Shown piece after piece: positions 13,692 to 30,233 of a DNA stretch of 64,000 nucleotides. Numbering within the stretch: the first letter of the stretch is position 1; the number at the start of each line of letters is the position of its first letter. The translations under genes were made by a program, and so were the position numbers. Below the pieces are notes generated by a model, which saw only the letters and a list, made by a program, of their open reading frames with translations, was not told the origin of the DNA and searched no databases. This DNA is from Minisyncoccia bacterium (GTDB taxonomy: Bacteria; Patescibacteriota; Minisyncoccia; Phycocordibacterales; UBA918), in assembly GCA_047639355.1 (NCBI GenBank), contig JBLIOC010000001.1, positions 3,215 to 67,214 on the forward strand. The letters are read 5' to 3'.

Positions 13692-13696
13692 CAATA

Positions 13697-14180: not shown

Positions 14181-14197
14181 CTGTAACAGAGTACGCA

Positions 14198-14223: not shown

Positions 14224-14411
14224 ATAAGTATCCTAACATCACTGAATAATACTTGCGATCAAGAATATAAAAATTAGTCAGATTAATGCACGTCTGGAAA
14301 GGTCGGTAACAAAAACAAAGACCCAGAAGAGAATCTCCTGGGTCAGTCAATTAAAATCTTGTCTCGCTTTTTTTGCAATAGTCACACAAGTAGTTATATT
14401 AAAGTTTTTTC

Positions 14412-14654
14412 TTAACTTTTTTTGAAAATCATCATAGCTTGGCTCTTTGTAGGTTGCGACAACTTCACCCAAGAGTTTAGTACTTCTGCTTTCTTTCCAG
14501 TGCTTCCACCACGACGTTCACCATGACTTCTCTTTGAAGCAGTTTTTCTATTATTGATCTTTCGGTAAGTCTTAATTATCTCTCCAAGTTCTTGCAACTT
14601 AGGAACTTTTTTGTACACGCACCTCTCCTTTGAGATATGGTTCAAATACTCCAT
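14412..14654 (-). CDS. Small basic hypothetical protein (80 aa)
   Basis: Lys/Arg-rich ORF. Its start abuts tRNA-like repeat copy 2. No recognisable domain. Confidence 0.35.
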   Translation of the reverse strand: MEYLNHISKERCVYKKVPKLQELGEIIKTYRKINNRKTASKRSHGERRGGSTGKKAEVLNSWVKLSQPTKSQAMMIFKKS

Positions 14655-14657
14655 TAG

Positions 14658-14686
14658 TGGCCGTCAAAACAATCCTGTCGAGATGA
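14658..14686. repeat. Direct repeat of the tRNA-Ala 3' end (copy 2, degenerate)
   Basis: gtggccgtcaaaacaatcctgtcgag shares TCCTGTCGAG with the tRNA and the ccgtca...acaa...tcctgtcgag frame with copy 1. Confidence 0.5.
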
Positions 14687-14802
14687 TTTGTAGTAACTCA
14701 TTAATGTTTGATTTAGCTTTGTTTCTACAATTGGGCACAATTCGCAAATACGGACTAGTCAACTGATATAATAAAGTTATATTATTAAACGTGTAGGTTT
14801 AT

Positions 14803-15069
14803 ATGAAAGATATTAAATTAGAAGAAGTATCATCTCCTGGCTGTTCTCACTGTGCAGCTTTCAAGGAGTATTGGGAAGGTGAAGCTATAAACTGGCCCAA
14901 CGTTACCTTTAGAGAGTTGAGTCTCGTGGATCCTGAGGGGCAAGAAATGGTCCAGAAACACCAGATATTTGCTTCTCCAGGCATTATTATTAATGGGGAA
15001 TTGTTTGCTACCGGAGGTGTAGACAAGATCGCCTTCAAGAAGAAACTTCAAGAACTTTCAGAAGAATAA
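14803..15069 (+). CDS. Small thioredoxin/glutaredoxin-fold protein with a CxxC motif
   Basis: 88 aa with SSPGCSHCAAF (CxxC) near the N-terminus. It lies immediately upstream of the CcdA-MCO fusion. Confidence 0.7.
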   Translation: MKDIKLEEVSSPGCSHCAAFKEYWEGEAINWPNVTFRELSLVDPEGQEMVQKHQIFASPGIIINGELFATGGVDKIAFKKKLQELSEE

Positions 15070-15072
15070 AAT

Positions 15073-18000
15073 ATGATTGATACAAAGTCCCCAGCTCCTT
15101 CTACAACTCCAACATCAAAGTCAGCTCGATCTTGGCTTATTATGGCAGCGGTGGGTGTTTTTGCAGCTATTGCTTTCGGTGTTTTATACCTATTCGTTCT
15201 AGCCCCATCCATTCCCGACGGAAATATTGGATGGTTTTTGTTTTCATTTGCGACAGGTCTTACGATGATCGTTATGCCGTGCACACTTCCACTGGCATTT
15301 GTAATCGTTCCTCTGTCTATGGGAAAGGGTCTTATTCGCGGTATCGGAATGTCTCTTGCATTCGGTCTTGGTATAGCTGTCACTCTTTCTCTTTATGGAG
15401 TAGCGGCAGCTCTTCTTGGAGGTGTAGCTATCGACGCTCTTGGTGCTGATCTTGATTCAATTAAAAACTGGGTCTATACAGTCGCTGGTGTCTTTGCTCT
15501 CGTTTTTGCATTGAGTGAAATTGGTTTGATGAATTTTCATATGCCCACATACAAGGGTGCAGCTCCGGCTTCGATACAGAAGCATGGAGAGTTGATAAAA
15601 GCTTTTATGTTGGGGCTTTTCCTTGGAAATGTTGGAGTAGGATGTCCTCATCCAGCTACTCCACTTATTTTGATAGAAATCGCTTCAAGTGGTGACGTGT
15701 TATACGGATGGCTTCTATTCCTGACTCATGCAATCGGCCGAATACTACCGTTGCTTCTATTAGCATTTATGGCAATCATTGGTGTAAATGGACTCAACTG
15801 GCTAATGTCCCGAAAGGATGCTGTTGAACGAACAACCGGCTGGGCAATGGTTTTCGTAGCAGGCTTTATTCTTACTCTAGGATTGTTCTCTCACGATTGG
15901 TGGGTCAATTCTGGAATTCACAGCGGACTTGAGACACTTACGCAAGAAGCTAGGTTCAACGCGCTTATAAACGAAACGCTTGATACCAATGTAGCTCACG
16001 CGCACGGATTAGAAGAAGGGGCTGGTCTATTTGGGTTACCTCTGGAGTGGGGTAATTGGTTCTTAGTGACGGTTTGGCTATTGCCAATGTGGTTATGGTA
16101 TAGAAAAAAGAAGAAGGACATTGAAGAAGGAGCTGACTTGTGTCAGGAAAAAGTCTTAAAGATAAAGAGAAATTTCCTTATTGTGATTGCTATATTTATC
16201 ATAATGATATTCACGCACTTTTTACCACAGAATTTTTACCTGAATTCTATTAGTGGTGGTGGTCACGGTGAAACGACTAGCCACGATGGTGCTGACGGCC
16301 ATCATGATGAAGGTGCATCAGCTAACCCTGACGGTATCCATGCAATGCCAGACGGCACAATCATGAATGCTAATGGAGACGTGCTAAAAGGTGGACATCT
16401 AATGCCGGACGGCACAATCATGCTTGCAGACGGAACGACGATAGGAGGTACTCCTTCGAACATACCTGCAGAAGCAACGCTGTATGGAGTTGATGTAGAA
16501 GATCTTCCGTTTGCTAACGTCCCTGAGACAGTAGAATTGGTAGATGGTGATAGTTATGATATCACTGCATTCTATGTACAGAAAGAGATAGGGAACAGAA
16601 CACTTCGTATGCTCGCATACAACGGCTCGGTTCCTGGACCCTTTATTAAGGCTCCGCAAGGAGCTGAGGTGACAATCAACTTTACGAACAACACAGACTT
16701 GGACCAAACCATCCACTCACACGGTCTACGATTAGACAACAACTTTGATGGAGTACCTGGTGTAACCCAGAATGTTGTTAAGCCTGGAAATTCACACTCT
16801 TATACTATTAAGTTTGAAGATGCCGGGGTTTATTGGTATCACCCACACACTCGTGATGATTACGGACAGGAAATGGGTCTGTACGGTAACTATATTGTAG
16901 AACCAATTGATGGTTACACATCACCAGTTAATCGACAAATTCCACTGGTTATTGATGACATTCTCATTGAGAACGACAAGATCTTTGACTTCTATAAAGA
17001 AATTACAAATTTTGCTTTACTTGGTCGATTCGGAAACGAATATTTGGTAAACGGTGAACAGGATTACTCACTCGAACTAGAGAAAGGTGAAGTTGTAAGG
17101 TTCTTGGTTACAAATGTTTCAAATGCAAGATCGTACAGTCTGTCGCTGCCAGGCGCGGAAATGAAAATGGTCGGTGCTGACATTGGACACTACGAGCGAG
17201 AGGAATTTGCAGAAGATTTCTTGATTTCGCCTTCTGAGAGAATGATTGTAGAAGCTTACTTCAAAGAATCGGGTACTTATTCTTTGACTCACACCACTCC
17301 GGACGGTGAGGTCGTACTTACTGAGTTTGTGGTTGGAGAAGAGTCAGTAGATGAATCATATGCTGAAGAATTCGACATTCTAAACGAAAACCAAGACGTA
17401 ATAGAAGAGTTCAGCACTTTCCGATCATATATTAGTAAAGACGCAGATAAGAAGCTATTACTTACTGTTGACCTAGAAGGACAGGTAGATCATAGTGCCC
17501 ACGGACATGCTACTGATGATGCTGCAGTGGATCCATATGCTGGTATTCATGCAATGCCTAACGGTGACGTTATGCTCGGATCTGGAGAAGTTATAACAGG
17601 TGCTACCGTAATGGATGACGGTACGATTGTCCTTGCTGACGGTACTGTTCCTGGCGCTCCACCTGTTCCAAAGACAAGACTTGAATCACTACAATGGAAT
17701 GACGAAACAATGTCCGACAAGGTAAACACTTCAGAGAATGTTACTTGGAAGATGATCGATGAAGAGACAGGAGCAAGCAGTATGATGATTCCAATAGCTG
17801 ACTGGACTTTCGTAGAGGGAGACATTGTCAAGATCCGATTAACTAATGATTCAACAGCCGATCATGTAATGCAACATCCAATCCACCTACACGGACAACA
17901 ATTTGTTGTTCTGACTGAAAATGGAGAGATTAATGACAATATGGCATGGAAGGACACTGTATTAGTATTCCCTGGTGAAGTCGTTGAAATATTAGTAGAC

Positions 18001-18834
18001 ATGAGCAACTTAGGGGAGTGGATGAGCCACTGTCATATTTCTGAGCACTTGCATGCCGGGATGATGATGCAATTTAGGGTAGAAGATGAATCTGGTTATG
18101 CAACAGGAGATGAATTCAGGTCTACTGTAACGGCTGGAATGGTTCACAAATCAAACGCTCCTACTATAAAGAAAAGCTCACGAGAATTTACCTTTGAGTC
18201 GGAAACTTCATCATTTGGCTACACAGTTTATGCTGAAAAAACCAGGTTCAAAGTAGGTGAAAAACAAGAGATCACACTGACTTTGTTTGATCCTGAGTTA
18301 AATGGTGTTGTGTTGTCTGAGAAGTATCCCGACCCACTTGGAATAACATTTGTGAAGAGTAATAATACTCAGAACTTTTACACTTACCCTGGGAACACAA
18401 CCTTCGATGCCGTCGATCATGGAGGATCAGCTCACGACAATAGTGATGGGCATCACAACGACACGATAGCTCCCTCATCAGAGCCGGTACATGACAACAG
18501 TGACGGGCATCATGGGTTTAATCTAATACCTACAGCTCACGCGCACGGCGGCACAGATGATGGTCACGCAGATGCTACTGGTCAAGTTTACACTTATACT
18601 GTGCCTGTAGCCTTCCCGGAAATTGGTGCGTACAAAGCCTTTGTTGAATTCGTGCCAGAAGGTGTAGATAAGCCGATTATTTTGAGTATGGATATAGAAG
18701 TGATCTCCTCGAACTTCTCAGTAGACAACTATGGTTGGAGCGTAAGTATGAAGTGGTGGATATTACTCATAGCCTCCCTGATCCTGACTGTACCTTTGGT
18801 GATCGGAGTTCGTAAGTACATTAACGTTAAATAA
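15073..18834 (+). CDS. Giant fusion of a CcdA/DsbD-like thiol-disulfide transporter TM domain with a multicopper oxidase, His/Met-rich Cu-binding repeats and a C-terminal TM anchor
   Basis: The N-terminal ~340 aa are polytopic with CcdA-type Cys motifs (IVMPCTLPLAF; GVGCPHPATPL). Multicopper oxidase motifs present: HSHGLR, WYHPHT, HPIHLHGQQF, HCHISEHLHAGMMM. Repeated GIHAMP(D/N)G..M and DNSDGHH segments. Final TM WWILLIASLILTVPLVIGV. Confidence 0.8.
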   Translation: MIDTKSPAPSTTPTSKSARSWLIMAAVGVFAAIAFGVLYLFVLAPSIPDGNIGWFLFSFATGLTMIVMPCTLPLAFVIVPLSMGKGLIRGIGMSLAFGLGIAVTLSLYGVAAALLGGVAIDALGADLDSIKNWVYTVAGVFALVFALSEIGLMNFHMPTYKGAAPASIQKHGELIKAFMLGLFLGNVGVGCPHPATPLILIEIASSGDVLYGWLLFLTHAIGRILPLLLLAFMAIIGVNGLNWLMSRKDAVERTTGWAMVFVAGFILTLGLFSHDWWVNSGIHSGLETLTQEARFNALINETLDTNVAHAHGLEEGAGLFGLPLEWGNWFLVTVWLLPMWLWYRKKKKDIEEGADLCQEKVLKIKRNFLIVIAIFIIMIFTHFLPQNFYLNSISGGGHGETTSHDGADGHHDEGASANPDGIHAMPDGTIMNANGDVLKGGHLMPDGTIMLADGTTIGGTPSNIPAEATLYGVDVEDLPFANVPETVELVDGDSYDITAFYVQKEIGNRTLRMLAYNGSVPGPFIKAPQGAEVTINFTNNTDLDQTIHSHGLRLDNNFDGVPGVTQNVVKPGNSHSYTIKFEDAGVYWYHPHTRDDYGQEMGLYGNYIVEPIDGYTSPVNRQIPLVIDDILIENDKIFDFYKEITNFALLGRFGNEYLVNGEQDYSLELEKGEVVRFLVTNVSNARSYSLSLPGAEMKMVGADIGHYEREEFAEDFLISPSERMIVEAYFKESGTYSLTHTTPDGEVVLTEFVVGEESVDESYAEEFDILNENQDVIEEFSTFRSYISKDADKKLLLTVDLEGQVDHSAHGHATDDAAVDPYAGIHAMPNGDVMLGSGEVITGATVMDDGTIVLADGTVPGAPPVPKTRLESLQWNDETMSDKVNTSENVTWKMIDEETGASSMMIPIADWTFVEGDIVKIRLTNDSTADHVMQHPIHLHGQQFVVLTENGEINDNMAWKDTVLVFPGEVVEILVDMSNLGEWMSHCHISEHLHAGMMMQFRVEDESGYATGDEFRSTVTAGMVHKSNAPTIKKSSREFTFESETSSFGYTVYAEKTRFKVGEKQEITLTLFDPELNGVVLSEKYPDPLGITFVKSNNTQNFYTYPGNTTFDAVDHGGSAHDNSDGHHNDTIAPSSEPVHDNSDGHHGFNLIPTAHAHGGTDDGHADATGQVYTYTVPVAFPEIGAYKAFVEFVPEGVDKPIILSMDIEVISSNFSVDNYGWSVSMKWWILLIASLILTVPLVIGVRKYINVK

Positions 18835-18835
18835 T

Positions 18836-19333
18836 ATGAATAAGTTTGCAGTTCTTGGGATCGTACTAGTACTCATCTTAGTTGGTGGGGTAGCTTACAA
18901 GCAGCTTGTCGGTAGTGCTGACGCGCCAGTTGAGACAGGGATAGTGAAAGAATACACAATTATTTCTAAGAAACTTGAGTGGAGATTTGAACCGGAATCT
19001 ATCGAGGTCGAGCAAGGAGACAGAATTATCGCAACAGTTATCAACGAAGATAATTTTGATCACGGTTTTGCTATTGACGCCTTCGGTATTAGTCAAAGAC
19101 TTCCGGCTAACGGGACGATTGTAGTGGAGTTCGTAGCGACTAAGTCTGGAGAGTTTCCTTTCTACTGTTCTGTTTCCTGTAGTAGTAGTGATAACCCCAC
19201 TTTTGATTTACTAAATGGCGAAGTGCAGACTGGTCCATACGCAGGCACATTTCAGGGTCACTTCGAACACGTAGGTAGGTTTGTTGTTAAAATGTTGCTA
19301 ACGGCAGGGATTCTGAACGAAGAAGAAAATTAG
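18836..19333 (+). CDS. Membrane-anchored cupredoxin-like (CuA-type?) protein
   Basis: N-terminal TM helix, beta-rich domain with HGFAIDAFG ... FYCSVSC ... H..M spacing reminiscent of CuA/cupredoxin ligands. Its position in the copper cluster supports the call. Confidence 0.45.
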   Translation: MNKFAVLGIVLVLILVGGVAYKQLVGSADAPVETGIVKEYTIISKKLEWRFEPESIEVEQGDRIIATVINEDNFDHGFAIDAFGISQRLPANGTIVVEFVATKSGEFPFYCSVSCSSSDNPTFDLLNGEVQTGPYAGTFQGHFEHVGRFVVKMLLTAGILNEEEN

Positions 19334-19368
19334 AACAAAGAAGCACATTAAAAATTTATCTATAAAAT

Positions 19369-21729
19369 ATGACAAAACTCGTACTTAAAGTAAAAGGGAT
19401 GCATTGCGCTTCTTGTTCGATACTTATAGACAAATTGCTTAAGAAACAAGAGGGTGTAATTAATTCTGCAACAAGTTACGGAGCTCAGAAAGTAGCTTTA
19501 GAATTTGATGAATCAATAATTACACTTGAAAAAATTGATGAGTTTGTAAACAAGCTTGGTTATGACGTCATCCGACCTGACGAGGACACTGGTTCATTAG
19601 AAGAAGCAGAAGCTGCTGAAGAAAAGGAACGTTTGGTTGCAAAGAAGAGAGTTATTGCTTCGTTTGCAATAGCGTCACCAATCATTGCCTACTACATGGG
19701 TGTTCACATGTTCAACTTACCTCACATTCACCAACTGTGGGGGATTGATCTTAACTACTTCTATTGGGCTCTTTCGACTCCTATTCAATTTGTAATAGGG
19801 TGGACATTCTACAGAAATGCTTGGGCGGCTGTGCGTATTGGCTCTGCTAATATGGACGTACTCGTAGTATTAGGAACTAGTGCTGCTTACTTCTACAGTA
19901 TGATCGGTTTCTTGTGGTTCAACATCGATCATCCTTTCTGGGAGAGTTCCGCCGCACTTATTTCATTTATTCTTCTTGGACGCTACGTGGAAGTAGTGGC
20001 TAAAGGCAAGGCTAGTAGTGCCATCAAGGAACTACTTAAACTTGAAGCAAAGGAAGCTAATGTCATTCGAGATGGCACTGAAGTCACTATCCCACTAAGC
20101 GACCTTGTCGAAGGTGATGTTATTGTAGTGAAGCCGGGAGGTAAGATTCCAGTTGATGGAATTATCGTTGATGGGGAAACTCATATTGATGAAAAGGTTG
20201 TTACAGGTGAATCGTTTCCAGTTAAAAGAGTTAAAGGAGATGAGGTTATTGGAGCAACCGTAAACTTAGAAGGAAGATTTAAATTTAGAGCAACAAAAGT
20301 TGGTAAAGACACACTGCTCAATCAGATCATAACCATGGTTGAGGAAGCTCAAGCTTCACGTGCTCCGGTTCAAGACTTGGTAGATAAGGTAAGTGAGTAC
20401 TTTGTACCCGCTGTAATTGTTATTTCTGTAATTACTTTTGTCGGCTGGGTATTCATTGCAGAACTACCAGTTAGAGCCGGAGTTCTAAGAATGATTGCCG
20501 TATTGGTTATCTCATGCCCGTGCGCCATGGGACTTGCTACACCAACCGCTTTAGTTGTAGGTATTGGACAAGCTGCAAAATATGGAATTATCCTCAAAGG
20601 AGGAGAGGCTTTGGAGAAAGCTTACAAGATTACAGCCATCTGCTTAGATAAAACAGGGACACTAACAATCGGAAAGCCAATCGTTACAGACTTCGTTCTT
20701 GTATCTAAAATGACAGAGTCTGATGCCTCCATTCTCGCAGCGTCAGCTGAAATGGGGTCTGAACACCCACTAGCTCGAGCCGTGATAGAGCATGCAAAGG
20801 ACTTTGGAAAGACTACGGAACCTAAAAACTTCGAAGCTGTTCAAGGTATGGGTCTAAAAGCAACGATAAAACTTAAAGGTAAGGATCATCAGGTTGCAAT
20901 TGGAAATCCTAAGTTTATGGAGAAACTTAAAAAAGACATAACTTCATATAAATCAGAATTAGATAGACTACAATCAGAGGCAAAAACAACTGTATTCCTA
21001 GTTGTAGATGGCAAGATAGTTGCTTTGATAGCAATGGCTGATGCATTAAAGCCTTTTGCAAAAGAAGCAATCACAGCTATGCGTAACATGAACAAGGAGG
21101 TTATCATGATTACTGGTGACAACCAAAAAACGGCTGACGCTATAGCTAAAGAAGTTGGTATTGAGAGGGTGCTTGCAGAAGTATTACCACAAGACAAAGC
21201 AGCAATGGTGAAAAAGTTGCAAAGTGAGGGAATGAATGTTGCGATGGTAGGGGATGGTATAAATGACTCACCAGCGCTAGCTCAGTCGAATCTAGGTATA
21301 GCAATTGGTTCAGGTACAGACGTAGCGATAGAGACTGGAGATGTTGTTCTTGTTAAAGATGACTTAAGAGACGTAGTTACTGCAATACAGCTTTCTAGTA
21401 AGACAATCAAGAAAATTTGGCAGAACTTGTTTTGGGCATTCTTCTACAACGTTGCAGCAATCCCTATTGCAGCTGGTGGTCATTTATTGTTTACTCAAGA
21501 ATCGTTTGGTATTGCAGCTGGGTGGGTGGTAGCTATACAAGATAAGTTTGGTTCAGCTGGACAGATTTTCTTCAACCTTTCACAAGCGACACTACGTCCA
21601 GAAATTGCCGGGTTTGCAATGGCGTTTAGCTCGGTATCAGTGGTTGTAAACTCGATGGTACTGCGGTTGTACACACCACCAATGGAAAAACTATCAAACG
21701 CTCAAGATAAAAAAAAGCAAGTCAAATAA
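19369..21729 (+). CDS. copA: Copper-translocating P1B-type ATPase
   Basis: N-terminal HMA domain (GMHCASCS), TM CPC motif (SCPCAMGLATP), DKTGTLT phosphorylation site, hinge GDGINDSPAL. Confidence 0.93.
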   Translation: MTKLVLKVKGMHCASCSILIDKLLKKQEGVINSATSYGAQKVALEFDESIITLEKIDEFVNKLGYDVIRPDEDTGSLEEAEAAEEKERLVAKKRVIASFAIASPIIAYYMGVHMFNLPHIHQLWGIDLNYFYWALSTPIQFVIGWTFYRNAWAAVRIGSANMDVLVVLGTSAAYFYSMIGFLWFNIDHPFWESSAALISFILLGRYVEVVAKGKASSAIKELLKLEAKEANVIRDGTEVTIPLSDLVEGDVIVVKPGGKIPVDGIIVDGETHIDEKVVTGESFPVKRVKGDEVIGATVNLEGRFKFRATKVGKDTLLNQIITMVEEAQASRAPVQDLVDKVSEYFVPAVIVISVITFVGWVFIAELPVRAGVLRMIAVLVISCPCAMGLATPTALVVGIGQAAKYGIILKGGEALEKAYKITAICLDKTGTLTIGKPIVTDFVLVSKMTESDASILAASAEMGSEHPLARAVIEHAKDFGKTTEPKNFEAVQGMGLKATIKLKGKDHQVAIGNPKFMEKLKKDITSYKSELDRLQSEAKTTVFLVVDGKIVALIAMADALKPFAKEAITAMRNMNKEVIMITGDNQKTADAIAKEVGIERVLAEVLPQDKAAMVKKLQSEGMNVAMVGDGINDSPALAQSNLGIAIGSGTDVAIETGDVVLVKDDLRDVVTAIQLSSKTIKKIWQNLFWAFFYNVAAIPIAAGGHLLFTQESFGIAAGWVVAIQDKFGSAGQIFFNLSQATLRPEIAGFAMAFSSVSVVVNSMVLRLYTPPMEKLSNAQDKKKQVK

Positions 21730-21820
21730 CCTAGCAGATAAGAAGAGTCGCGGACTTATTGTTCTCGGCTCTTTCTGTGTATTGCAATAAAAGACACGCA
21801 ACCAGTGATATACTTACAGT

Positions 21821-22036
21821 ATGCAAAAAATAGAATTAAATATAGAAGGGATGCACTGCGGTGGATGTTCCACAGGAATACAGATGGTTACAGAAATGCT
21901 AGACGGGGTAACTTCATCATTTGTTGATTTAGATGCCAAGAAGGGAACTTTCGAGCTTGATGGAACTGGTGCCAAAGTAGAAGATATTATTGGAGAAATC
22001 ACTAAACTAGGTTACACAGCAACAGTCATTGAGTAA
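21821..22036 (+). CDS. copZ: Copper chaperone, HMA domain
   Basis: 71 aa with the GMHCGGCS metal-binding motif. Confidence 0.85.
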   Translation: MQKIELNIEGMHCGGCSTGIQMVTEMLDGVTSSFVDLDAKKGTFELDGTGAKVEDIIGEITKLGYTATVIE

Positions 22037-22038
22037 TT

Positions 22039-22557
22039 ATGGATATTTTCACCTTACTTATTATTGGTCACCTGGTTGGGACTGTTTTAGGAGTCGGTGG
22101 AGCAACGATGATTGAGTTTCATCTAAATAAAGCTTTGAGTGACGGAAATATGTCTTTGGACGAACGTAGTATGCTCGGTCTAAACTTTGTAGTTTTGAGG
22201 ATAGGTTTAGTTTTAGCTTTAGTAACCGGCTTTGGTTTTCTTGTGTATTACGTCACACATGGTCAAGCGTTCCGTCTTCAAAACCCTGTGCTATGGGCAA
22301 AACTGTTTATGGTTGTGATTGTTGGTGTAAATGCTCTGTTACTTCAATCACATAAGATTGGGTTGTACTGGGGGAGCGCTCTATCATTTGTTACTTGGTG
22401 GGCGACCATGATTTTAGGAATATTCTTAACCAACAACGTCCGGTTTGATTTTATTACAATAATGATTGGTTACTTACTAGCAGTTGTGGCCGGAGCATTT
22501 ATACTCCACAAGATACGCGATTACGTTAAATTAAGATATAAAGCGAAAAATGCCTGA
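22039..22557 (+). CDS. Small polytopic membrane protein, paralog A
   Basis: 172 aa with 4-5 TM helices. Clear similarity to the ORF at 24339-24860: LGVGGATMIEF ... DERSMLGLNFVVLRIGLVLALVTG versus LGVGSSTLAIV ... ETERRMMGVVYVVLRVATLMILLTTG. Confidence 0.6.
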   Translation: MDIFTLLIIGHLVGTVLGVGGATMIEFHLNKALSDGNMSLDERSMLGLNFVVLRIGLVLALVTGFGFLVYYVTHGQAFRLQNPVLWAKLFMVVIVGVNALLLQSHKIGLYWGSALSFVTWWATMILGIFLTNNVRFDFITIMIGYLLAVVAGAFILHKIRDYVKLRYKAKNA

Positions 22558-22948
22558 TATTACTTTCCCAATACAAATATTTTCCTCAGTAACAGCTCTT
22601 ATTTCTTCTTATGCTTTCCTAATGGCTGTTCTCAACAGGGAACCAAAGACTGTATGGTTAAGAGGCGCGTCATCACTGATGCTCCTTTCTAGCGGTATCT
22701 CATTTGCTCTTTACTATAGTAATTTATTTAGTTCAGACGCATATCTAGCCTTTGGCTCGGCAGCCTTTCTTTTGCTGACAGTATTGATTAGCTTAGGCAT
22801 TGCTGTAGTACACTGGTACGAAATGAGAAGCGATACCCTTAACTATCCACAAAACCTCTTGCTAACCACAAAAGTAGTTGCCGTTACTAGCTTTACAACT
22901 ATTACAATTCACTTACTGCTACAAATCGCATCTCTTGGTTGGGGGTAG
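22550..22948 (+). CDS. Hypothetical membrane protein
   Basis: 132 aa, hydrophobic, overlaps the upstream gene by 8 nt (operonic). Confidence 0.5.
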   Translation: MPDITFPIQIFSSVTALISSYAFLMAVLNREPKTVWLRGASSLMLLSSGISFALYYSNLFSSDAYLAFGSAAFLLLTVLISLGIAVVHWYEMRSDTLNYPQNLLLTTKVVAVTSFTTITIHLLLQIASLGWG

Positions 22949-23552
22949 CGAAATTATTTTTTTCTCCTTACATTTTTCTAAACCATGAAGATCTTCACTC
23001 ATTTGTTAGTCACGGTGCATTGTTCGTAACATGGTGTTAAATTTTTATTACTGTACTTTCTATATAAAAGTTCTAACGCAGTATTAACCCAAAAAGGGGA
23101 TGCCTGGGAACGTATCAACAGGAATGTGTTTCTAACTGCACAACAGTCAAATAAAGTTAGCAACATGCTGAAATATATTTACTGCGTCGCAGCTGGACAA
23201 AATCAGATATTTTACATGTTGGAAAACTAGGAGAGGCTACAGAACTAATTCTTGTTGAGCTGTACAAAATAATCCTAATTAAAAGTGTTTTTATTACTCA
23301 GGATTCCTCTCGATCTATAACTCATGCAGAGGTTAGTGTTAATCTTCCGTAAACAATATTGGAGTAAACTGCAATCATGTTGATTGGTCGACTTCTCGCC
23401 TTTTTGAAAACGTAGACAAAAACTTTAGTTGCCCGTATACACCTTTAAGTCCATATATGAAATTCGTAACAACGGCTCTATATTGTCACAGTCTTGTTGG
23501 GTAGCTGTTCAGCGAGCATGGTGTTAGTTAAGTTAGAAACTTGAAACCTGTA

Positions 23553-24263
23553 TTAGAAAAGCAATTTTATAAGTTTTTTGTAGGTGTCGTTGTGGTCATC
23601 TACTGCTATCGTTTCGATTACACCAATTACCGCTTCGTCGTTGCCTCCAGGGTATAGAGCATCACCAAAGTAAACACATTCTTCTTTATTCCAACCTTTT
23701 AGGTCGATGAGTTTTTGTACGTTGGTCCCCTTATGTCTGTCTTTATGTATGTAATCAAGGCTGGTTGAACCACCTATTTTTACAACTAGTTCTTCAGAAT
23801 TAAAGGGAACCTTTTCCATAAGGTACTCACGCTTCTTTCTGTTAGGATCGTATTTTTTTTTGGCTTCTACTGGGGCTGTGTTACCGATTGGGCTAAAGGT
23901 AATTTGTGAACCTCTGTCCTCTACTGGATTCCAGTCGGGATTCGGCTCGTGGTCAATTATTTCAACTATGGCTTTAATGTGTGACAAAATTTCTTGCCTA
24001 TGATGATTGTCGAGAGGAATGTTCCATAGCTCCTCATTTTCAACATTTGTAGCATGATTACCGTTTTGTCCAAGTGTGTAGGCTGGCAAATTACTGATCT
24101 GCCACCCAATTTTTGAAACTTCCTGTCCAGACACGATTATAACGTCGTGGTCAAGGGAGTCTAGTAGGTCATACATTTCTCTCAAAATGGGCTGCCTAGA
24201 GGGAGCAACGGTCTGATCCATGTCAAAAAATAAGTGTTTGTATTCTTTCATGTTTAGTAGCAT
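23553..24263 (-). CDS. HAD-superfamily hydrolase (subfamily IIB-like)
   Basis: N-terminal FFDMDQT (DxD motif) and C-terminal GD..N acidic motif (YFGDALYPGGNDEAV). The start codon is ambiguous: Met at 24338, 24263 or 24251. Confidence 0.65.
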   Translation of the reverse strand: MLLNMKEYKHLFFDMDQTVAPSRQPILREMYDLLDSLDHDVIIVSGQEVSKIGWQISNLPAYTLGQNGNHATNVENEELWNIPLDNHHRQEILSHIKAIVEIIDHEPNPDWNPVEDRGSQITFSPIGNTAPVEAKKKYDPNRKKREYLMEKVPFNSEELVVKIGGSTSLDYIHKDRHKGTNVQKLIDLKGWNKEECVYFGDALYPGGNDEAVIGVIETIAVDDHNDTYKKLIKLLF

Positions 24264-24338
24264 AAACCTATTCGCTCTTCCTGTAAATCCACAACTCTGT
24301 AATTTTTTTTTGTAAATAATACTGCTATCATATACCAT

Positions 24339-24860
24339 ATGACACTTTTTATTACTCTAGTTGCAATCTTGCAGCCATTTTCAATTTCACTTGGGGTTGG
24401 TTCCTCTACCTTAGCTATTGTAAATTTTTTCGTGACTATTGCAGATGGAGCTATAGATGAAACAGAACGAAGGATGATGGGAGTTGTTTACGTCGTACTG
24501 CGCGTAGCAACGTTGATGATCCTCCTTACTACTGGTGCACTAGTCTCAATTGAGTTTACAAACGGAGGCATCGTTGGATTCTCTACTATTATTTACGCAC
24601 AACTACTAACTCTCATTATGCTGTTTGTAAATGCTTCACTTATGACTGCTCGAGTGATGCCCAGCACCTATGGTCCAGCATTGCAGGCAGGGAGCTGGTA
24701 TACACTAGGCACACTTTCAGCATTACAGATTGTTGGGATTGTAAACTTTAGTTTCTTAAACTTCTTGTTTGGATATATTACTTGGCTGATATTAGCAGTT
24801 GCAATAGTAAATGGGATCATGTCAGTTCTAGCTGCTAGAAGAAAAGGAAAGTTACATTAA
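24339..24860 (+). CDS. Small polytopic membrane protein, paralog B
   Basis: 173 aa, homologous to the ORF at 22039-22557 (see that entry). Confidence 0.6.
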   Translation: MTLFITLVAILQPFSISLGVGSSTLAIVNFFVTIADGAIDETERRMMGVVYVVLRVATLMILLTTGALVSIEFTNGGIVGFSTIIYAQLLTLIMLFVNASLMTARVMPSTYGPALQAGSWYTLGTLSALQIVGIVNFSFLNFLFGYITWLILAVAIVNGIMSVLAARRKGKLH

Positions 24861-24871
24861 AAGTAGATTCT

Positions 24872-24901
24872 AAAAAACACCTCAATATGAGGTGTTTTTT
24901 C
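24872..24901. terminator. Bidirectional intrinsic terminator between convergent genes
   Basis: AAAAAA-CACCTCA-ata-TGAGGTG-TTTTTT. Confidence 0.7.
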
Positions 24902-24908
24902 ATTGCTT

Positions 24909-27900
24909 TTATTTTTCCACTTCTCCTGGTCGTCGACTGTATGTGATTGGGATAAGTACTAGGGTAATTATTACTGAGAATACTAATCCAAACATCACTG
25001 AATACGCAAGGGGAGCCCATAGATCTCCTGCATAGGTAAGAGGTACCATGCCGAACACTGTAGTGATGGTTGTCAGCAGAATCGGTCGTAGGCGGTTTGC
25101 TGCTGCATCTAATACAACTTCTCTCACTGGCTTACTCGGATTTGCTTTTCGCATTTTGTTCATCATGTCTATCAAGAGGATAGAGTTATTTACTACAATT
25201 CCAGACAGAGCTATGAATCCCATCATTGAAGGGAAAGAAAGTGTGCTTTGTGTAATCGCAAGACCTGACAAAATACCAATCAATGAGTACGGCAAAATAG
25301 AAAGCACGTACCGCATGTGCAAGTAGGAGTTAAATTGTAAAGTAAGAATACAGACCATCAATGCGATGCCGACAATTAACGCCAAGCCCATTTCGATGAA
25401 CGCCCGGTTTGAATCTTCTGTTTCACCACCACCCGTACTGATTATTACATCAGCTGGTACATTAAGCTCTTCTTCAATTTGAACCAATGCTGCTGCTTGG
25501 ATTTCTCGAGCATTTCCCTGCGCGGAAGCATCAGCTGATATTGTCACCACCCGCTTGCTGTCCTCGTGATTAATGACCGAACTAGACTCTCTTAAAGCAA
25601 CTGTTGCTAATGTTGAAAGTGGTACCTGTCCAGACTGAGTAGGGATTATTATCGAACTCAACGCATTTATTGATGTAATTTTCGTACTTTCTGCTGTTGG
25701 ATTATCTACGTTGTCTACGTTTAATTTAACAATCACATCAATGTCTTCATCGAGAGTAGTGAGTGAAGTCGCTTCTGTCCCAAAGAGGGCAGTACGGGCG
25801 ATCTGTGAGACTACTAGAGGACTAACACCGAGTGCAGCTGCTTTATCTCTATTTAGTTCTAGTACGAACTCAGTACTGTTGTTATTAGTACTCGTTTCAA
25901 CATTAACGGTGTTTGAGATATTTTTGAAGATTTTTGCTACACCATTTGCTAAGGTAGTAAGTTCTGTAAGATCATCACCCAAGAACTTTACTATGATCGC
26001 TGCTCCGGTCGGAGGACCATCACTTGGCTGATTGACAGTGACTTTGATGTCATTTAAGACTAAAAACTTTCGTCTCAAGTCGTCAACAATTACTGTACTA
26101 GTACGTTCACGCTCAAGATCAAGGTTTACAAAGATATTGGCAAACTTTTCACCGGTACCCCCAGATCCAAACTGACTACCACTTCCAACTGTGACAGTAA
26201 ATGAGTCAATCTCTGATTCTGCATATAGAATTTCCTCTACACGCCTAACGGAAATATCGGTCACTTCTTTAGTCGTCCCCTCAGGCTCTTCAATTTCAAT
26301 GATAACGAAATCGATATTGCTTTGTTCGAAAAAGATAACCTTTACTAGACTAGTAGAAGGGAGAAGTATTCCTGCTACAAACACAGACAACATGATAGTA
26401 ATGATTGTGGTTGGAATCCAAGCAAGCTTTCTCTTAAAGTCTGACCACCCTCGTTTTTTCTTAATAGTATGTGATTTGAGTGATACAAAGTATACAAGTG
26501 GTGCTGCAATAAGACCTGCGAAGACATTGACTGGAAGGAAGATAGAGAACAGAAGTAGTGAAAAGATGGCGGAAAGGAATTTATTCTCCCTGTCTTGATT
26601 ACCAACAATTAATTCCATTTTGCCTCGGTACCAATCGGCGAACTTGTTTGCAAACACTGCTTGTTTTTCTTCAAGTACTGATTCGTTTCTCCGCTTTAAG
26701 AACGTAGAGGCAATCAAAGGCAAAATAGCAAGTGCCACAAAGAGTGATGCAAAGAGTAGGAAGATAAGTGTAAATGGAATACTGGCAATAAATTGTCCTG
26801 TTACTCCTGACACAATAAAAAGACCAACGAACATCGATACGGTAGTGAGTGTACCGGCAATAAGTGGTGCTTTGAATTCTCGAATGGTGGTAATAGCCGC
26901 TTCTCGTTTGTCTATAGTTGGTTCGTCTTTCATTTTCTTGTTGATACCTTCAATCATCACAATTGCCGAGTCCACAAGAATTCCAATACCGAGAATAAGT
27001 GAAAACAGACTCAGGAAGTTAATTGTATTGCCTGAAAAGTACAAACCAATAAACCCAAACAAAAATGAAAGGGGAATAGCCGCTCCAGCCAGTAACCCCT
27101 CTCTCCAGCCGATCGCGAGCATTAGAAGCAACACCACTAGGATGACTGTCTGCAAACCAGATGTGGATAGCTGTACAAGATCATTTCTTATGTCCTTTCC
27201 CGCATCTAATACTGTTACTGCAGTGACTCCATCAAGTAGCTCATCTTGAACACTTAGTGCAGTTACGCGCTTATTTACTGCTGCTGCAATAGTTGTGATG
27301 TCTCCACCAGATTGCTTATATACGTTTATAGTTACTGAGTTTAGAGAGGGTTCTCCATCAACACTTAGTCTTGAAAGTAATGTGGATACAGCTAAGCCAT
27401 CTTCTACTGTAGCTAAGTCTTTAATATAAATTGGTTGTCCTCCTCGATTTGTAATACCAATATTTTTGATTTGTGTTGAGTCCTCGATGTCTCCTTCAAA
27501 GGCGACGTTGTATGAAACTCCGTTGTTTACAATCTGTCCGATTGGAAAAGTAAGATTGGCACTTGAGATTGCATTAGTTATTTCAGATAGTGAAATGTTA
27601 AACCGTTGTAGTGACACCTGGTCTACGATCACTGTTACTTCTCGGTCACGAATACCACTAAGCTCAACACGTGATACTCCAGCAACAGATTCAAGCTCGC
27701 GCTGAACATCGTCGGACAACTGGGTGAACGCAAAGTCTGAGATGTCAGCTGAAAGCGCAATGGTAAGGATTGGTTGATTTACAAAATCAACTTCCAAGAC
27801 AACAGGCTCTGTTGCATCGGTTGGTAAATCTGTCTTTATCTTATCAACCTGGTCTTTGAGGTCTGCGATTGATTTGTCTAGATCTGCACTGGCATCAAAT

Positions 27901-28175
27901 TCAATCATTACACTTGACACACTCTCGCGCGAAGTTGAAGTAATCTTTTTTACGTTTTCTAGACTCGTTAATCCACGCTCTATCTCGTTAGTAATGAGAG
28001 ATTCTATATCTGCAGCCGGCGCACCGGGCAAAGAAATTGAGACTACTCCAATCGGCACTACCACTTCTGGTGCTGATTCTTTTGGAATAGAGATGAGACT
28101 GTAGCTACCGATGCCAATCAAGGCTATGAGGAATAAGTAGGCGAACTTACTGTTTTTTATGAAGAATTCCCACAT
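24909..28175 (-). CDS. RND-family efflux transporter (AcrB/CusA/CzcA-like inner-membrane pump)
   Basis: 1088 aa with 12 TM helices, two large extracytoplasmic loops and an AcrB-like N-terminus (MWEFFIKNSKFAYLFLIALIGIGSYSL). Confidence 0.9.
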   Translation of the reverse strand: MWEFFIKNSKFAYLFLIALIGIGSYSLISIPKESAPEVVVPIGVVSISLPGAPAADIESLITNEIERGLTSLENVKKITSTSRESVSSVMIEFDASADLDKSIADLKDQVDKIKTDLPTDATEPVVLEVDFVNQPILTIALSADISDFAFTQLSDDVQRELESVAGVSRVELSGIRDREVTVIVDQVSLQRFNISLSEITNAISSANLTFPIGQIVNNGVSYNVAFEGDIEDSTQIKNIGITNRGGQPIYIKDLATVEDGLAVSTLLSRLSVDGEPSLNSVTINVYKQSGGDITTIAAAVNKRVTALSVQDELLDGVTAVTVLDAGKDIRNDLVQLSTSGLQTVILVVLLLMLAIGWREGLLAGAAIPLSFLFGFIGLYFSGNTINFLSLFSLILGIGILVDSAIVMIEGINKKMKDEPTIDKREAAITTIREFKAPLIAGTLTTVSMFVGLFIVSGVTGQFIASIPFTLIFLLFASLFVALAILPLIASTFLKRRNESVLEEKQAVFANKFADWYRGKMELIVGNQDRENKFLSAIFSLLLFSIFLPVNVFAGLIAAPLVYFVSLKSHTIKKKRGWSDFKRKLAWIPTTIITIMLSVFVAGILLPSTSLVKVIFFEQSNIDFVIIEIEEPEGTTKEVTDISVRRVEEILYAESEIDSFTVTVGSGSQFGSGGTGEKFANIFVNLDLERERTSTVIVDDLRRKFLVLNDIKVTVNQPSDGPPTGAAIIVKFLGDDLTELTTLANGVAKIFKNISNTVNVETSTNNNSTEFVLELNRDKAAALGVSPLVVSQIARTALFGTEATSLTTLDEDIDVIVKLNVDNVDNPTAESTKITSINALSSIIIPTQSGQVPLSTLATVALRESSSVINHEDSKRVVTISADASAQGNAREIQAAALVQIEEELNVPADVIISTGGGETEDSNRAFIEMGLALIVGIALMVCILTLQFNSYLHMRYVLSILPYSLIGILSGLAITQSTLSFPSMMGFIALSGIVVNNSILLIDMMNKMRKANPSKPVREVVLDAAANRLRPILLTTITTVFGMVPLTYAGDLWAPLAYSVMFGLVFSVIITLVLIPITYSRRPGEVEK

Positions 28176-28179
28176 AAGA

Positions 28180-29733
28180 TTATTCGCTAACTTCTACTTC
28201 GTCTCCTTCGACTAAGCCCCGTGCATCAATAACGAAAGCATCATCTTTTGCAATACCTTTCATTACTTCAACAGAGCCTCCAAGAATATTACCCAGAGAA
28301 ACAGATTTACTTACTAATTTGCCATCTTCTACAATAAATACAGAGCCGTTACTTCGGTCAAACTTCACGGCAGTGAGTGGTACCTGGATGGTGTCAGTAG
28401 ATGTTATCTCAGCATCAAACTGCTTTGTTATCCGGACGGTGTCACCGTTTGTCAGATTTGCATCTTCTGTTGCAATTCTAACTTCAGTCTTCCTGGTAAC
28501 AGAATCCACCGCTGGTGCGATTTCTGTGACTGTTCCGACAATTGTTCCTTCCACTAATACTGAATCTCCTTTAGCTAAAAGATTTTTTTCCGAGTCACTA
28601 ATATAGGTGATTACTTCCAACGCATTGTTGTTGGCTACTATAGCTACTTCTGCAAAAGAATTAATGAAGTCACCGGTTCGGATAGGCAGAGCATTTACTG
28701 TTCCACTGATTGGTGTTCGTAAAATAGTTTTTGCTAGGTTAGCTTGTGCTGCCCCAAGGGCTCCAAGTGCTTGTTTTACTTGAGCATCAGCAACAGATAT
28801 GACTCCACCGACAGCCGCTAGTTCAGCACGACGTACTCCGTCAGCAGATGACGAAAGACCAGTTAATGAAGTATCAAGGCTAGATTGTGTTTCGATTAAA
28901 GTTGATCGTAAATTTGTAAAAGAATTACTAAAACCTTGCAATTCAGTATCAGTATATCGTTTTGAATTATCATGTTGATTAAAAATTTCCAGAAATGTAT
29001 CTATGAAATTAATTGTGCGCTCAACATTTTGCTTTGCATAACCTAACTCTGTTTCTAAGTTAGAGTTGCTAGATATTACGTTGACTTGATTTTGCCATGT
29101 TGGTAAAAGTGTTTGATAAGCAACTCGTTCATCATTTAATTCACTCGTAAAACCTCTCCCACTTATTCGTAAGCCAGGAATTCTACTATTAGGATTTGCA
29201 AAAAAGGAATCAATTGAATTTACTACTACCCCGTTAGTTGTGTTGTAGGCAGACTTAAATGCTGAAACAGCCGTGTCTTGTGTTCGTTTTAGTGAATTTT
29301 TTGCTTCGTCTAAACCAACTCCACTTTGGGCTGCTGCAGCGACCGCAGCGTCATATATTCCTTCTGCTTGAAGTACAGAAGCACGTTCAGAGGCATTTTC
29401 AAGTGTTGCAAGAATTGTGCCGGCAGGTATTTGCTGACCTAGATTGACGTTCACAGCAGTCAAGCTCCCAGCTCGTTCAGAAGTAACTTCAGCTTCGGAG
29501 AATGCGCGTACATTTCCAATCAAAGAAATTGACTGACCCCCAGAATATTTTATGGGTGTAGTTAGGGTCACTATTGGCTTTTGTTGGACAACCAAGTCAT
29601 TTTTTGCAATAGGGTCACCTTTTAAAATCACTATTAACACAACGATTCCCAAAAAAACCACAGCTCCGTGTATTGTTTTACGGTTAATAAATAATTTAAG
29701 TCGTTCTGTTATTTTCATAAGATTTTGTTTCAA
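28180..29733 (-). CDS. Efflux periplasmic adaptor (membrane fusion protein, HlyD/RND-MFP family)
   Basis: 517 aa: N-terminal TM anchor, long coiled-coil, and barrel-sandwich/beta-barrel C-terminus. The stop is 5 nt from the start of the RND gene. Confidence 0.85.
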   Translation of the reverse strand: MKQNLMKITERLKLFINRKTIHGAVVFLGIVVLIVILKGDPIAKNDLVVQQKPIVTLTTPIKYSGGQSISLIGNVRAFSEAEVTSERAGSLTAVNVNLGQQIPAGTILATLENASERASVLQAEGIYDAAVAAAAQSGVGLDEAKNSLKRTQDTAVSAFKSAYNTTNGVVVNSIDSFFANPNSRIPGLRISGRGFTSELNDERVAYQTLLPTWQNQVNVISSNSNLETELGYAKQNVERTINFIDTFLEIFNQHDNSKRYTDTELQGFSNSFTNLRSTLIETQSSLDTSLTGLSSSADGVRRAELAAVGGVISVADAQVKQALGALGAAQANLAKTILRTPISGTVNALPIRTGDFINSFAEVAIVANNNALEVITYISDSEKNLLAKGDSVLVEGTIVGTVTEIAPAVDSVTRKTEVRIATEDANLTNGDTVRITKQFDAEITSTDTIQVPLTAVKFDRSNGSVFIVEDGKLVSKSVSLGNILGGSVEVMKGIAKDDAFVIDARGLVEGDEVEVSE

Positions 29734-29826
29734 GCGGGTTATTTTCGATGGAAATTACCATAAAAAATTCTTTTTGTATATAACCCTCAGGGGTTTTAAC
29801 TCTAGTACGCACTGTATGGTACAATC

Positions 29827-30150
29827 TTGCACATGTTTGGAAAAATTAAAAACTTTGCGATGAAGAAGATTCTTCAGAAGCAAATGAAAAATGTACCAGA
29901 GGACCAGCAAAAGATGATAATGGAAATGTTGGAAAAAGATCCAGTTTTGTTCGAGAAGATTGCCAAAGAAATGCAAGTAGAACTCAAGGCTAATGGTAAT
30001 AATCAAATGGCTGCTGCTACCAAAGTTTTGCCAAAGCACCAAAAAGAAATTATGGCCGTTATGAGTCCTGAAATGAAGGAAAAGTTGATGAAAATGCAAG
30101 GTGGCGGAGGAGCTGGACAATTTAATCCCAATGGAAGCATTCGTAGGTAA
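29827..30150 (+). CDS. Small Met/Lys-rich hypothetical protein
   Basis: 107 aa with repeated MxxM-like spacing (MKEKLMKMQ, MIMEML), a GGGGAG tail and no signal peptide. Divergent from the RND operon. Confidence 0.4.
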   Translation: MHMFGKIKNFAMKKILQKQMKNVPEDQQKMIMEMLEKDPVLFEKIAKEMQVELKANGNNQMAAATKVLPKHQKEIMAVMSPEMKEKLMKMQGGGGAGQFNPNGSIRR

Positions 30151-30233
30151 GGTCCAAAATAGACAACTAAACTCGTCTAGTAATCAACAGGGTGCGGGCT
30201 TTGCTCGCGCCTTTCTGAGTTATAATATTTAAC

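Follow-up and report, generated by a model that had tools for sequence, protein, structure and literature searches.

We estimate at roughly 60% the probability that the copper-gene region downstream of the tRNA-Ala gene in a 64,000-nucleotide (nt) stretch of the Minisyncoccia contig JBLIOC010000001.1 (the window) is a composite, in which a copper operon at 14732-22948, working by the mechanism proposed below and long resident at its site rather than recently inserted, lies beside ordinary chromosome at 23553-30150. The initial annotation had described 14803-30230 as one contiguous copper island, and the genes that it listed are indeed contiguous, with open-reading frames (ORFs) found at exactly the positions given. 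The copper assignment stands for 14803-22948, which encodes a coherent copper-handling set, but 23553-30150 is backbone, syntenic in relatives devoid of copper genes. Related loci fetched for comparison are numbered L001 to L103.

Delimitation of the copper cassette

The description of the region as a single block fails on comparison with L019, the closest relative (identities to the window of 90% for the RND permease, 92% for Ddl, and 97% for YchF), from which the segment 14659-23558 is absent. L019 carries in its place 724 unrelated nt with a 196-amino-acid (aa) ORF, of which no remnant was found in the window, and the breakpoints are clean. The flanks are conserved, with 91% identity over 13824-14658 and 81% nucleotide identity over 23559-29535, a presence/absence pattern of the kind that marks tRNA-associated islands, and L020/L021 and L029 also lack the cassette. 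Gene order in L019 is uvrC-(x)-ddl-tRNA-Ala-[short]-HAD-172aa-RND-adaptor-Met-rich ORF-flavodoxin-S49-ychF-leuS, with zero copper genes, and L020/L021 and L029 have the order ddl-tRNA-Ala-HAD-173aa-RND-MFP-Met-rich-flavodoxin-S49-YchF, again without copper genes and with an RND permease 74% identical to that of the window. The HAD hydrolase, the 173-aa membrane protein, the RND permease, its adaptor, and the Met-rich ORF are assigned to the backbone because they are syntenic in relatives without copper genes. Order across 23553-30150 is thus conserved, while the cassette is present in some relatives only. The RND pump and its neighbors appeared to be part of a metal island merely through adjacency, and 23553-30150 has no demonstrable tie to copper.

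The cassette consists of seven genes in ~8 kb (14803-22948). It is characteristic of Paceibacteria/Parcubacteria, with at least 10 Paceibacteria loci carrying the whole set together. The order thioredoxin (Trx)/CcdA-multicopper oxidase (MCO)/cupredoxin/CopA/CopZ/~170-aa protein/~130-aa protein is kept in L002, L003, L004, L005, L006, L009, L011, and L103, and the cassette proteins of these eight loci are 44-91% identical to those of the window. It is preceded by ddl/tRNA-Ala in L003, L103, and the window. A Paceibacteria-type cassette was also seen in loci with unexpected taxonomic labels, namely L005 (Azotimanducaceae), L007 (Acidimicrobiales), and L008/L009 (Saccharibacteria), which probably reflect binning contamination or mislabeling of metagenome-assembled genomes (MAGs). 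On L001 (ENA contig k141_473202), the complete cassette is duplicated as perfect inverted copies on either side of two adenine-glycosylase genes, most likely an assembly artefact.

Upstream of trx, a box, TGGGYACAAY, precedes an extended -10 element, TGnTAYAMT, by ~21-22 nt (Table 1). The box was matched at the same place in 8 loci and the extended -10 aligned in all 9 of the 9 sequences compared; in the window, the combined pattern occurs once against 0.00 expected. Homology to the L103 and L003 cassettes starts at this promoter (14747/14758). The two elements, both of which contain TACA(A), were observed in the window and upstream of trx in L002, L003, L005, L006, L007, L011, and L016. The box may be an operator for a copper-responsive regulator, since none is encoded within the operon; family searches of its proteins found no copper sensor or regulator of the CueR, CsoR, CopY, or CopRS type.

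A form of the operon without the oxidase is present in L102 and in one JGI contig, where a ~800-aa protein combines CcdA with the C-terminal Ig-like/anchor modules. Its CcdA module is 52-58% identical and it contains two cysteines only, and these operons keep the genes for Trx, cupredoxin, CopA, CopZ, and a 167-aa protein alongside. Downstream of them (L102 6729-14365; JGI contig) are a flavodoxin-like FMN reductase gene and ychF, directly after CopZ in the JGI contig and after three further small ORFs in L102. The flavodoxin-YchF pair abutted by this MCO-less cassette is the window's own right-hand backbone.

Table 1 Features of the tRNA-Ala region in window coordinates
Feature	Position	Strand	Basis
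tRNA-Ala(TGC), backbone	13619-13692	+	ARAGORN and Rfam
Zone of tRNA-Ala 3′-end fragment copies	13756-14682		Repeat search
Segment without counterpart in L019 (cassette and 604-nt gap)	14659-23558		blastn and alignments
Predicted cassette promoter/operator, TGGGCACAAT-N22-TGATATAAT (box and extended -10)	14732-14772	+	Conservation
Thioredoxin-like protein, 88 aa, motif CSHC	14803-15069	+	Pfam Thioredoxin_3
CcdA-multicopper-oxidase fusion, 1253 aa	15073-18834	+	Pfam DsbD_TM plus three Cu-oxidase domains
Recombination tract, oxidase catalytic module only	16394-18028	+	Identity profile against L103
Cupredoxin, CuA-like, membrane-anchored, 165 aa	18836-19333	+	Pfam Cupredoxin_1
CopA, P1B-1 Cu(I) ATPase, one N-terminal HMA	19369-21729	+	Pfam, TIGR01511, motifs
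CopZ-type chaperone, GMHCGGC	21821-22036	+	Pfam HMA
Cassette membrane protein, 172 aa	22039-22557	+	Weak DUF2214 similarity
Last cassette gene, membrane protein, 132 aa	22550-22948	+	Position kept in other loci
Junction DNA without ORF, 604 nt	22949-23552		No detectable feature
HAD-IIB/phosphomannomutase-like hydrolase, backbone	23553-24338	-	Pfam/NCBIfam and synteny
173-aa membrane protein, backbone, distant paralog of 22039-22557	24339-24860	+	Alignment, synteny
RND permease ACR_tran, backbone	24909-28175	-	Pfam/NCBIfam
Adaptor RND_mfp, backbone	28180-29733	-	Pfam/NCBIfam
Met/Lys-rich cytoplasmic protein, backbone, 87-107 aa	29827-30150	+	No family match; 13% Met

The CcdA-oxidase fusion and its thioredoxin

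Of the 11 related loci covering this stretch, 10 have trx directly in front of the fusion gene; in L009, trx is located 3.6 kb upstream of it. The CxxC motif of Trx is invariant among orthologs, no signal peptide, transmembrane (TM), or hydrophobic segment was found in the protein encoded at 14803-15069, and it would serve as a cytoplasmic electron donor to the CcdA module of the fusion. A MAG named "Candidatus Paceibacteria bacterium" encodes a protein with 100% identity to the fusion itself (15073-18834). CcdA is fused to an oxidase in ~90 of the 120 clusters of related proteins listed, with all source names given belonging to Patescibacteria. Only a few representatives of a library clustered at 50% identity were matched by the CcdA part as well as by the oxidase part.

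From its N-terminus, the fusion comprises a TM helix, CcdA, a His-bearing outer loop, two TM helices, a His/Met-rich linker, the MCO, an Ig-like domain that carries a His-rich loop, and a TM anchor. The CcdA module scored 42.5 bits with PF02683 (cut-off 27.1) and is a DsbD_TM domain by this measure. Its redox pair, C70 (PCTLP) and C191 (GCPHP), is invariant in 21 homologs, as are H274, H283, H309, and H311 in the loop that follows the sixth CcdA helix. The oxidase is a three-domain MCO by both its Pfam domains (PF07732, PF00394, and PF07731) and the presence of the four motifs HxH, HxH, HxxHxH, and HCHxxxHxxxxM, which provide the ligands H548/H550, H590/H592, H935/H938/H940, and H986-C987-H988-H992-M997. 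In the same homologs, 11 of the 12 ligands are invariant and H988 is present in at least 90%. Hydropathy and the positive-inside rule predict a topology with the N-terminus inside, followed by the extra helix, the six CcdA helices, and the His loop outside, after which two helices around a KKKK loop would lead to ~840 residues outside and a final anchor helix.

The outside part is headed by a His/Gly/Met-rich linker with H(A/L)MPDGTIM repeats, and a second insert is located between oxidase domains 2 and 3; these HAMPDGTIM-repeat inserts (~423-454 and ~826-838) are not conserved in every homolog. The His/Met-rich inserts are only suggestive of a cuprous oxidase activity. The solved structures closest to the oxidase module are those of bacterial laccase-like oxidases and of CueO (~111 bits for CueO). 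On a 2.18-Mb gammaproteobacterial contig (L012, 10001-11578), a stand-alone MCO is 54% identical to fusion residues 469-1017, closer than several Paceibacteria fusions, which hints at the origin of the oxidase module.

Cupredoxin, CopA, CopZ, and the small membrane proteins

The cupredoxin has an N-terminal membrane anchor, and its C111 and C115 are the sole extracytoplasmic Cys pair of the cassette. A profile of 8 orthologs searched against the PDB matched nitrosocyanin (7e-11), the CuA domain of NosZ (3e-8), and the CuA domain of CoxB, and H76, C111, and C115, invariant in the 8 orthologs, are in register with the His/Cys/Cys of CuA. The complete CuA ligand set, H...C-x3-C-x3-H-x2-M, was not found, as an insertion of 11-26 residues precedes an invariant GHF and there is no conserved Met. 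Because H-x2-M is replaced by this insertion, the protein is labeled CuA-like and not CuA.

CopA contains the motifs GMHCASC, SCPCAMG, CLDKTGT, FFYNVAAIP, and MAFSS in its translation, as expected for a P1B-1 ATPase, scored 587 bits with TIGR01511 (cut-off 397), and is 71-91% identical across cassette loci. CopZ matches PF00403 with an E-value of 4.5e-12, and both cysteines of its GMHCGGC motif are invariant in 7 orthologs, consistent with a CopZ-type chaperone. The 132-aa protein is poorly conserved: at its position, L002-L005 and L102 have an ORF of 121-152 aa, with similarity detectable to L002/L005 only.

The 172-aa cassette protein and the 173-aa backbone protein belong to a Patescibacteria-wide family with 940 matches. 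The initial annotation had called the two clear paralogs bracketing a gene-free gap. They are genuine paralogs, but distant ones (27% identity, E 1e-14), and the 604-nt gap instead separates the membrane protein at 22550-22948 from the HAD gene. One subfamily accompanies the copper cassette and the other adjoins the RND gene, so the closeness of the two paralogs here is that of a cassette beside a backbone copy. With DUF2214 (PF09980), these proteins scored 24.2 bits, under the cut-off of 34.1, and weak matches were found in 15 of 34 family members (best 1.2e-7); the relation to DUF2214 is distant at most. A confident five-helix model of the small membrane protein matches generic bundles only. 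Kinship with CopD was considered and rejected, no CopD match being found in the 34 members at E-values up to 1, and a 171-aa ORF after fpg in L004, a candidate second paralog, has no similarity. The gap itself (22949-23552) contains no ORF above 55 aa and no Rfam match, has no similarity to ~100 loci or to the rest of the window, and showed no excess RNA structure when folded (z of +0.95 and +0.56), and we take it to be junction DNA.

The efflux pair and its neighbors

The initial annotation had counted the RND genes in a copper, possibly Cu/Ag, resistance island, but the permease scored 282 bits with the CusA/CzcA model TIGR00914, for which the cut-off is 701, and scored higher with two of three multidrug subfamily models (433 bits with RND_permease_2 and 309 bits with another). 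Its best PDB matches are MexK and TriC, with CusA at 144 bits only, and it was consequently not placed among the heavy-metal (HME-RND; CusA/CzcA) permeases. Nearly all of the 120 RND protein clusters listed are 1088 aa long, or a few residues off, and 65-90% identical, and the source names given for these are all Paceibacteria, Nomurabacteria, Kaiserbacteria, or Parcubacteria. The adaptor (28180-29733) has a weak CzcB/NccB match of 68 bits. As classed by these profiles, permease and adaptor are a core Paceibacteria efflux pair of putative multidrug type.

The 173-aa membrane protein is 88% identical in L019 and 61% in L020/L029, each time adjoining the RND gene. For the Met-rich ORF, identity reaches 96% in L019 and 82% in L020, and the ORF is present near ychF in L056, L069, and L070 with no RND gene within those loci. 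No signal peptide or TM segment was predicted in the encoded protein, and its true start is probably M3 or M20. Its homologs at L019 8032-8349 and L020 8011-8274 place it among the most conserved proteins of the region.

Proposed function of the cassette

From the domain content, we infer the following mechanism. CopZ would pass cytoplasmic Cu(I) to CopA, which would export it, and the oxidase, tethered to the membrane at both ends by its N-terminal CcdA module and its C-terminal helix because these are cells without a periplasm, would turn the exported Cu(I) into Cu(II). The metal would be captured by the His/Met-rich loops, which are likened to the Cu(I)-capturing loops of CueO, together with the Ig-like CrdA/CopC-like domain. 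Trx would reduce Cys70/Cys191 of CcdA, so that reducing equivalents cross the membrane, with the cupredoxin Cys111/Cys115, which need the reduced state for copper binding, as their most plausible acceptor. TlpA acting on CoxB and the Scs system are analogies for keeping a CuA Cys pair reduced. CopA is also the likely copper source for both the oxidase and the cupredoxin; in Rhodobacter, oxidase maturation is reported to depend on CopA (PMC8456105).

Two observations count against parts of this scheme. An extracytoplasmic thioredoxin-fold partner, the usual target of CcdA, is not encoded in the cassette, and the choice of the cupredoxin as acceptor is accordingly a guess. In the window cupredoxin, moreover, 26 residues lie between the second Cys and the conserved His that follows. 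In a rival reading, the cassette is not primarily for resistance; it would instead assemble a copper oxidase outside the membrane and supply it with electrons, so that O2 is scavenged or the oxidase acts as a minimal electron sink in a cell that has no respiratory chain. CopA and CopZ would then metallate the oxidase and the cupredoxin, electrons from Trx/CcdA would reach the oxidase directly or via the cupredoxin, and O2 would be reduced. That Trx, the CcdA module, the cupredoxin, and CopA strictly occur together, also in the MCO-less form, is in keeping with such a role, as are the placement of the cupredoxin in the electron-transfer CuA group, the invariant histidines in the outward loop beside the CcdA module, the operon's lack of a copper sensor or regulator gene, and the CopA-dependent oxidase maturation reported for Rhodobacter (PMC8456105). 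The oxidase is not an obligatory end point, however, since MCO-less cassettes retain all else, and its His/Met-rich loops resemble the Cu(I)-capturing regions of cuprous oxidases (PMC11494321). This function is on balance improbable. For thiol-to-cupredoxin electron transfer via CcdA, to our knowledge, there is no precedent, which also counts against an electron supply, and a reading in which the CcdA module reduces Cu(II) is a further rival. The boldest form of the idea, that the trio of Trx, CcdA-oxidase, and CuA-like cupredoxin is a new transmembrane route from thiol power through CcdA to outside copper centers and on to O2, strikes us as quite improbable. If true, it would represent a thiol-fueled membrane oxidase for O2 or Cu(II) reduction in CPR (candidate phyla radiation) cells that lack respiration, with CopA and CopZ mainly metallating it, and the oxidase would be a module, exchanged between lineages, that was inserted into a CcdA-Ig copper protein predating it. 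The export and oxidation of copper remains the preferred function.

Evolutionary history of the cassette

The initial annotation had linked the island to horizontal acquisition beside a repeat-scarred tRNA-Ala. The tRNA gene is directly downstream of ddl in L003, L019, L020, L022-L030, L056, L069, and L103, and copies of its 3′-end are present, with an inverted copy at 13756-13771, a direct copy at 13870-13885, and a degenerate direct copy at 14673-14682; the 3′-end 10-mer occurs three times against 0.1 expected. All of these lie to the left of the copper genes, none having been found from 22949 rightwards in a search that tolerated 3 mismatches in 15. The repeats, one of them inverted, therefore do not flank the cassette as they would an island. 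Small conserved ORFs are located within the copy zone at 13956-14180 (+) and 14412-14654 (-), and since 13824-14658 is common to cassette-free L019, the greater part of the scarred zone is older than the cassette or unconnected with it. Downstream of the tRNA gene, its last 16-23 nt are repeated as alternating direct and inverted copies at ~150-200 nt spacing (13670-13885, 14673-14682), and such arrays were also seen at L003 5370-5931 and L103 446-786. The inverted copies are interrupted by a small hairpin; in L003, the copies make a ~360-nt tandem unit. A simple att scar would be less elaborate than this array, which is conserved in several Paceibacteria.

Composition and gene content were also examined. 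GC content is 0.35-0.43 throughout the window with no step at the region, the values considered in judging the island being 0.38-0.43, and the cassette is like the rest of the window in codon fit (Mann-Whitney p = 0.09) and GC3 (p = 0.29), so the atypical composition of a tRNA island was not found. No integrase, recombinase, or phage gene was found in 13478-30230 in Pfam or PHROG searches that included the small junction ORFs, no relatives of the fusion were found in viral contigs with single-sequence or alignment queries, and no viral or plasmid signal was found for the cassette. When the window is compared with L003, four-fold degenerate sites have an identity of 0.36 for cassette genes and 0.30 for backbone genes, where chance would give 0.315, and on these values a recent transfer between the two was rejected. 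Between the window and L103, this identity is near saturation at 0.30-0.37 outside the oxidase tract described below, while it reaches 0.64 in the backbone shared with L019.

The horizontal-acquisition claim is thus borne out to the extent that a variable spot downstream of tRNA-Ala lacks the cassette in L019, L020/L021, and L029, but the native composition, the absence of an integrase and of a right-hand repeat, and the old divergence between cassettes weigh against it. Long residence at the locus with repeated loss fits at least as well, as the cassette occupies the same site in three lineages (window, L103, and L003), synonymous sites are nearly saturated outside the oxidase tract, and the MCO-less cassette of more distant genomes adjoins flavodoxin-ychF; we give this history about an even chance and favor it over a recent gain. 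Most likely, the cassette has recombined with cassettes of other lineages rather than arrived as a recent foreign insertion.

Several findings weigh against old residence. The cassette is absent from L019, L020/21, and L029, from more deeply related genomes that share this backbone (L056, L069, L070, and L078), and from all 80 ddl-anchored metagenome loci, many of whose contigs stop soon after ddl. Its neighborhoods in L002 (adenine glycosylase, F-type ATP synthase) and L004 (V-type ATPase, UDG, Fpg) are unrelated. A tetranucleotide deviation peak of z ~3.2 over the oxidase gene is the sole compositional signal, and the third, degenerate tRNA-Ala copy is located at exactly the left breakpoint of the cassette segment, which fits an insertion. 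In a rival account, the seven-gene cassette was gained recently, after the split from L019, by insertion or recombination at a tRNA-Ala hot spot and from another Paceibacterium. The nearness of L019, which has clean breakpoints and no cassette, agrees with such a gain, as do the cassette-free outgroups L020/L029, the varying cargo after tRNA-Ala (the 196-aa ORF in L019, an ECF sigma/anti-sigma pair in L030, and a desaturase in L003), the tRNA 3′-fragment copies at the spot with one on the left junction, the different neighborhoods of the cassette elsewhere, and the 1.6-kb tract of recent exchange between lineages. We nevertheless regard a recent gain as doubtful, given that there is no integrase and no right-hand repeat, the composition is native, three lineages hold the cassette at the same site, and no near-identical donor was found, the closest cassette, that of L103, being at synonymous saturation outside the oxidase tract. 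That the whole of 14803-30230 is a single acquired Cu/Ag island at tRNA-Ala, with a CusA-like RND pump and a Met-rich metal-binding protein, is highly improbable. The genes are contiguous and next to a tRNA with 3′-end copies, the Met-rich ORF adjoins the adaptor gene, and the adaptor has its weak CzcB/NccB match, but the RND permease, adaptor, Met-rich ORF, HAD hydrolase, and 173-aa protein are syntenic where copper genes are missing, the permease falls far under the CusA/CzcA cut-off with multidrug models scoring higher and CusA a weak PDB match, the Met-rich protein has no export signal and occurs away from RND genes, the segment missing from L019 stops at 23558, and the region is uniform in composition and without an integrase.

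Recombination of the oxidase module

Nucleotide identity between the window and L103 is 0.85-0.95 within 16394-18028 (L103 2560-4190) and 0.65-0.83 over trx, the CcdA module, the C-terminal domain, and the cupredoxin gene, while identity to L003 is flat at ~0.73 throughout. Four-fold-site identity to L103 reaches 0.57-0.79 within the tract; the flanking CcdA and C-terminal modules give 0.30-0.34, and the ddl fragment of L103 gives 0.27 (Fisher p = 0.007 versus the whole oxidase gene). This contrast between inside and outside indicates that only the oxidase catalytic module was exchanged recently between lineages. The left edge of the tract coincides with a copy of the MPDGTIM repeat at 16396-16434, and this edge, together with the MCO-less proteins, suggests that a CcdA-Ig copper protein existed first and that the oxidase was inserted into it as a module.

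Relation to known systems

In Corynebacterium, Cu(I) is exported and then oxidized outside the cell (PMC3353115), the logic that is also proposed for the cassette. The cassette is similar to CopA-CopZ plus CueO systems (Cue of E. coli, the CopRS regulon of Corynebacterium, and cutFOG/CopA of Rhodobacter) in combining a P1B-1 ATPase, CopZ, and a three-domain MCO with His/Met-rich inserts. Unlike CueO, which is soluble and exported by Tat/Sec, the cassette oxidase is fused to a CcdA membrane module and has a C-terminal anchor, and unlike Cue-type systems the cassette is one operon with a thioredoxin and a cupredoxin and without a CueR/CsoR/CopY/CopRS regulator gene. It resembles CcdA/DsbD systems in a DsbD_TM domain above the Pfam cut-off, invariance of both membrane cysteines, and an adjoining small thioredoxin gene, but it differs in that an extracytoplasmic partner of the thioredoxin fold and genes for cytochrome c maturation are both missing, and in the extra N-terminal helix, the His-bearing outer loop, the two additional helices, and the fusion to copper proteins. 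Scs (ScsB/ScsC) and TlpA-CoxB/ScoI are copper-linked thiol systems to which it can be likened through copper and the CuA-type Cys pair.

The cupredoxin shares the fold family and the aligned His/Cys/Cys with CuA (the C-terminal domain of NosZ and cytochrome oxidase subunit II) and nitrosocyanin; it departs from CuA in the 11-26-residue insertion after C-x3-C, the missing conserved Met, and its form as a stand-alone, membrane-anchored 165-aa protein. Like CusCFBA/CzcCBA, the efflux genes pair an RND permease with a neighboring membrane-fusion protein and have a small Met-rich ORF close by, but no outer-membrane factor is present, the Met-rich protein is cytoplasmic, and the pair is core in copper-gene-free genomes. 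Likewise, the cassette has the position downstream of a tRNA, the 3′-end copies, and the patchy presence among close relatives of tRNA-associated islands, but not their integrase, flanking repeats, or foreign composition. A copper island next to a tRNA is, as such, ordinary, and was here partly mis-delimited. The parts of the cassette are well-known families; what is new is the fusion, its obligatory thioredoxin and CuA-like partner, and the exchange at the level of a domain. The literature was searched for a CcdA-oxidase fusion or a CPR copper operon and no paper describing either was found in the library searched, and both halves of the fusion are named in automatic annotations only.

CPR/Patescibacteria genomes are ~1 Mb or less. 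An 8-kb operon is a large investment because the genomes are so small, and Paceibacteria, Kaiserbacteria, and relatives have retained it as one unit, which suggests that copper stress or the use of copper enzymes is a real selective factor for epibiotic CPR cells. The fusion with its dedicated thioredoxin also unites two usually separate fields, thiol-disulfide electron transport and copper oxidation, and offers a compact test case for keeping copper sites reduced and loaded outside the cell without a periplasm.

Other genes of the window

The remainder of the window contains housekeeping genes, e.g., uvrB, uvrA, uvrC, ddl, leuS, alaS, and dnaK. The leucyl-tRNA synthetase (34321-37170, 949 aa) has an inserted NUDIX domain at residues 381-517, and its orthologs in L019/L020, at 793-806 aa, are apparently without this insert.

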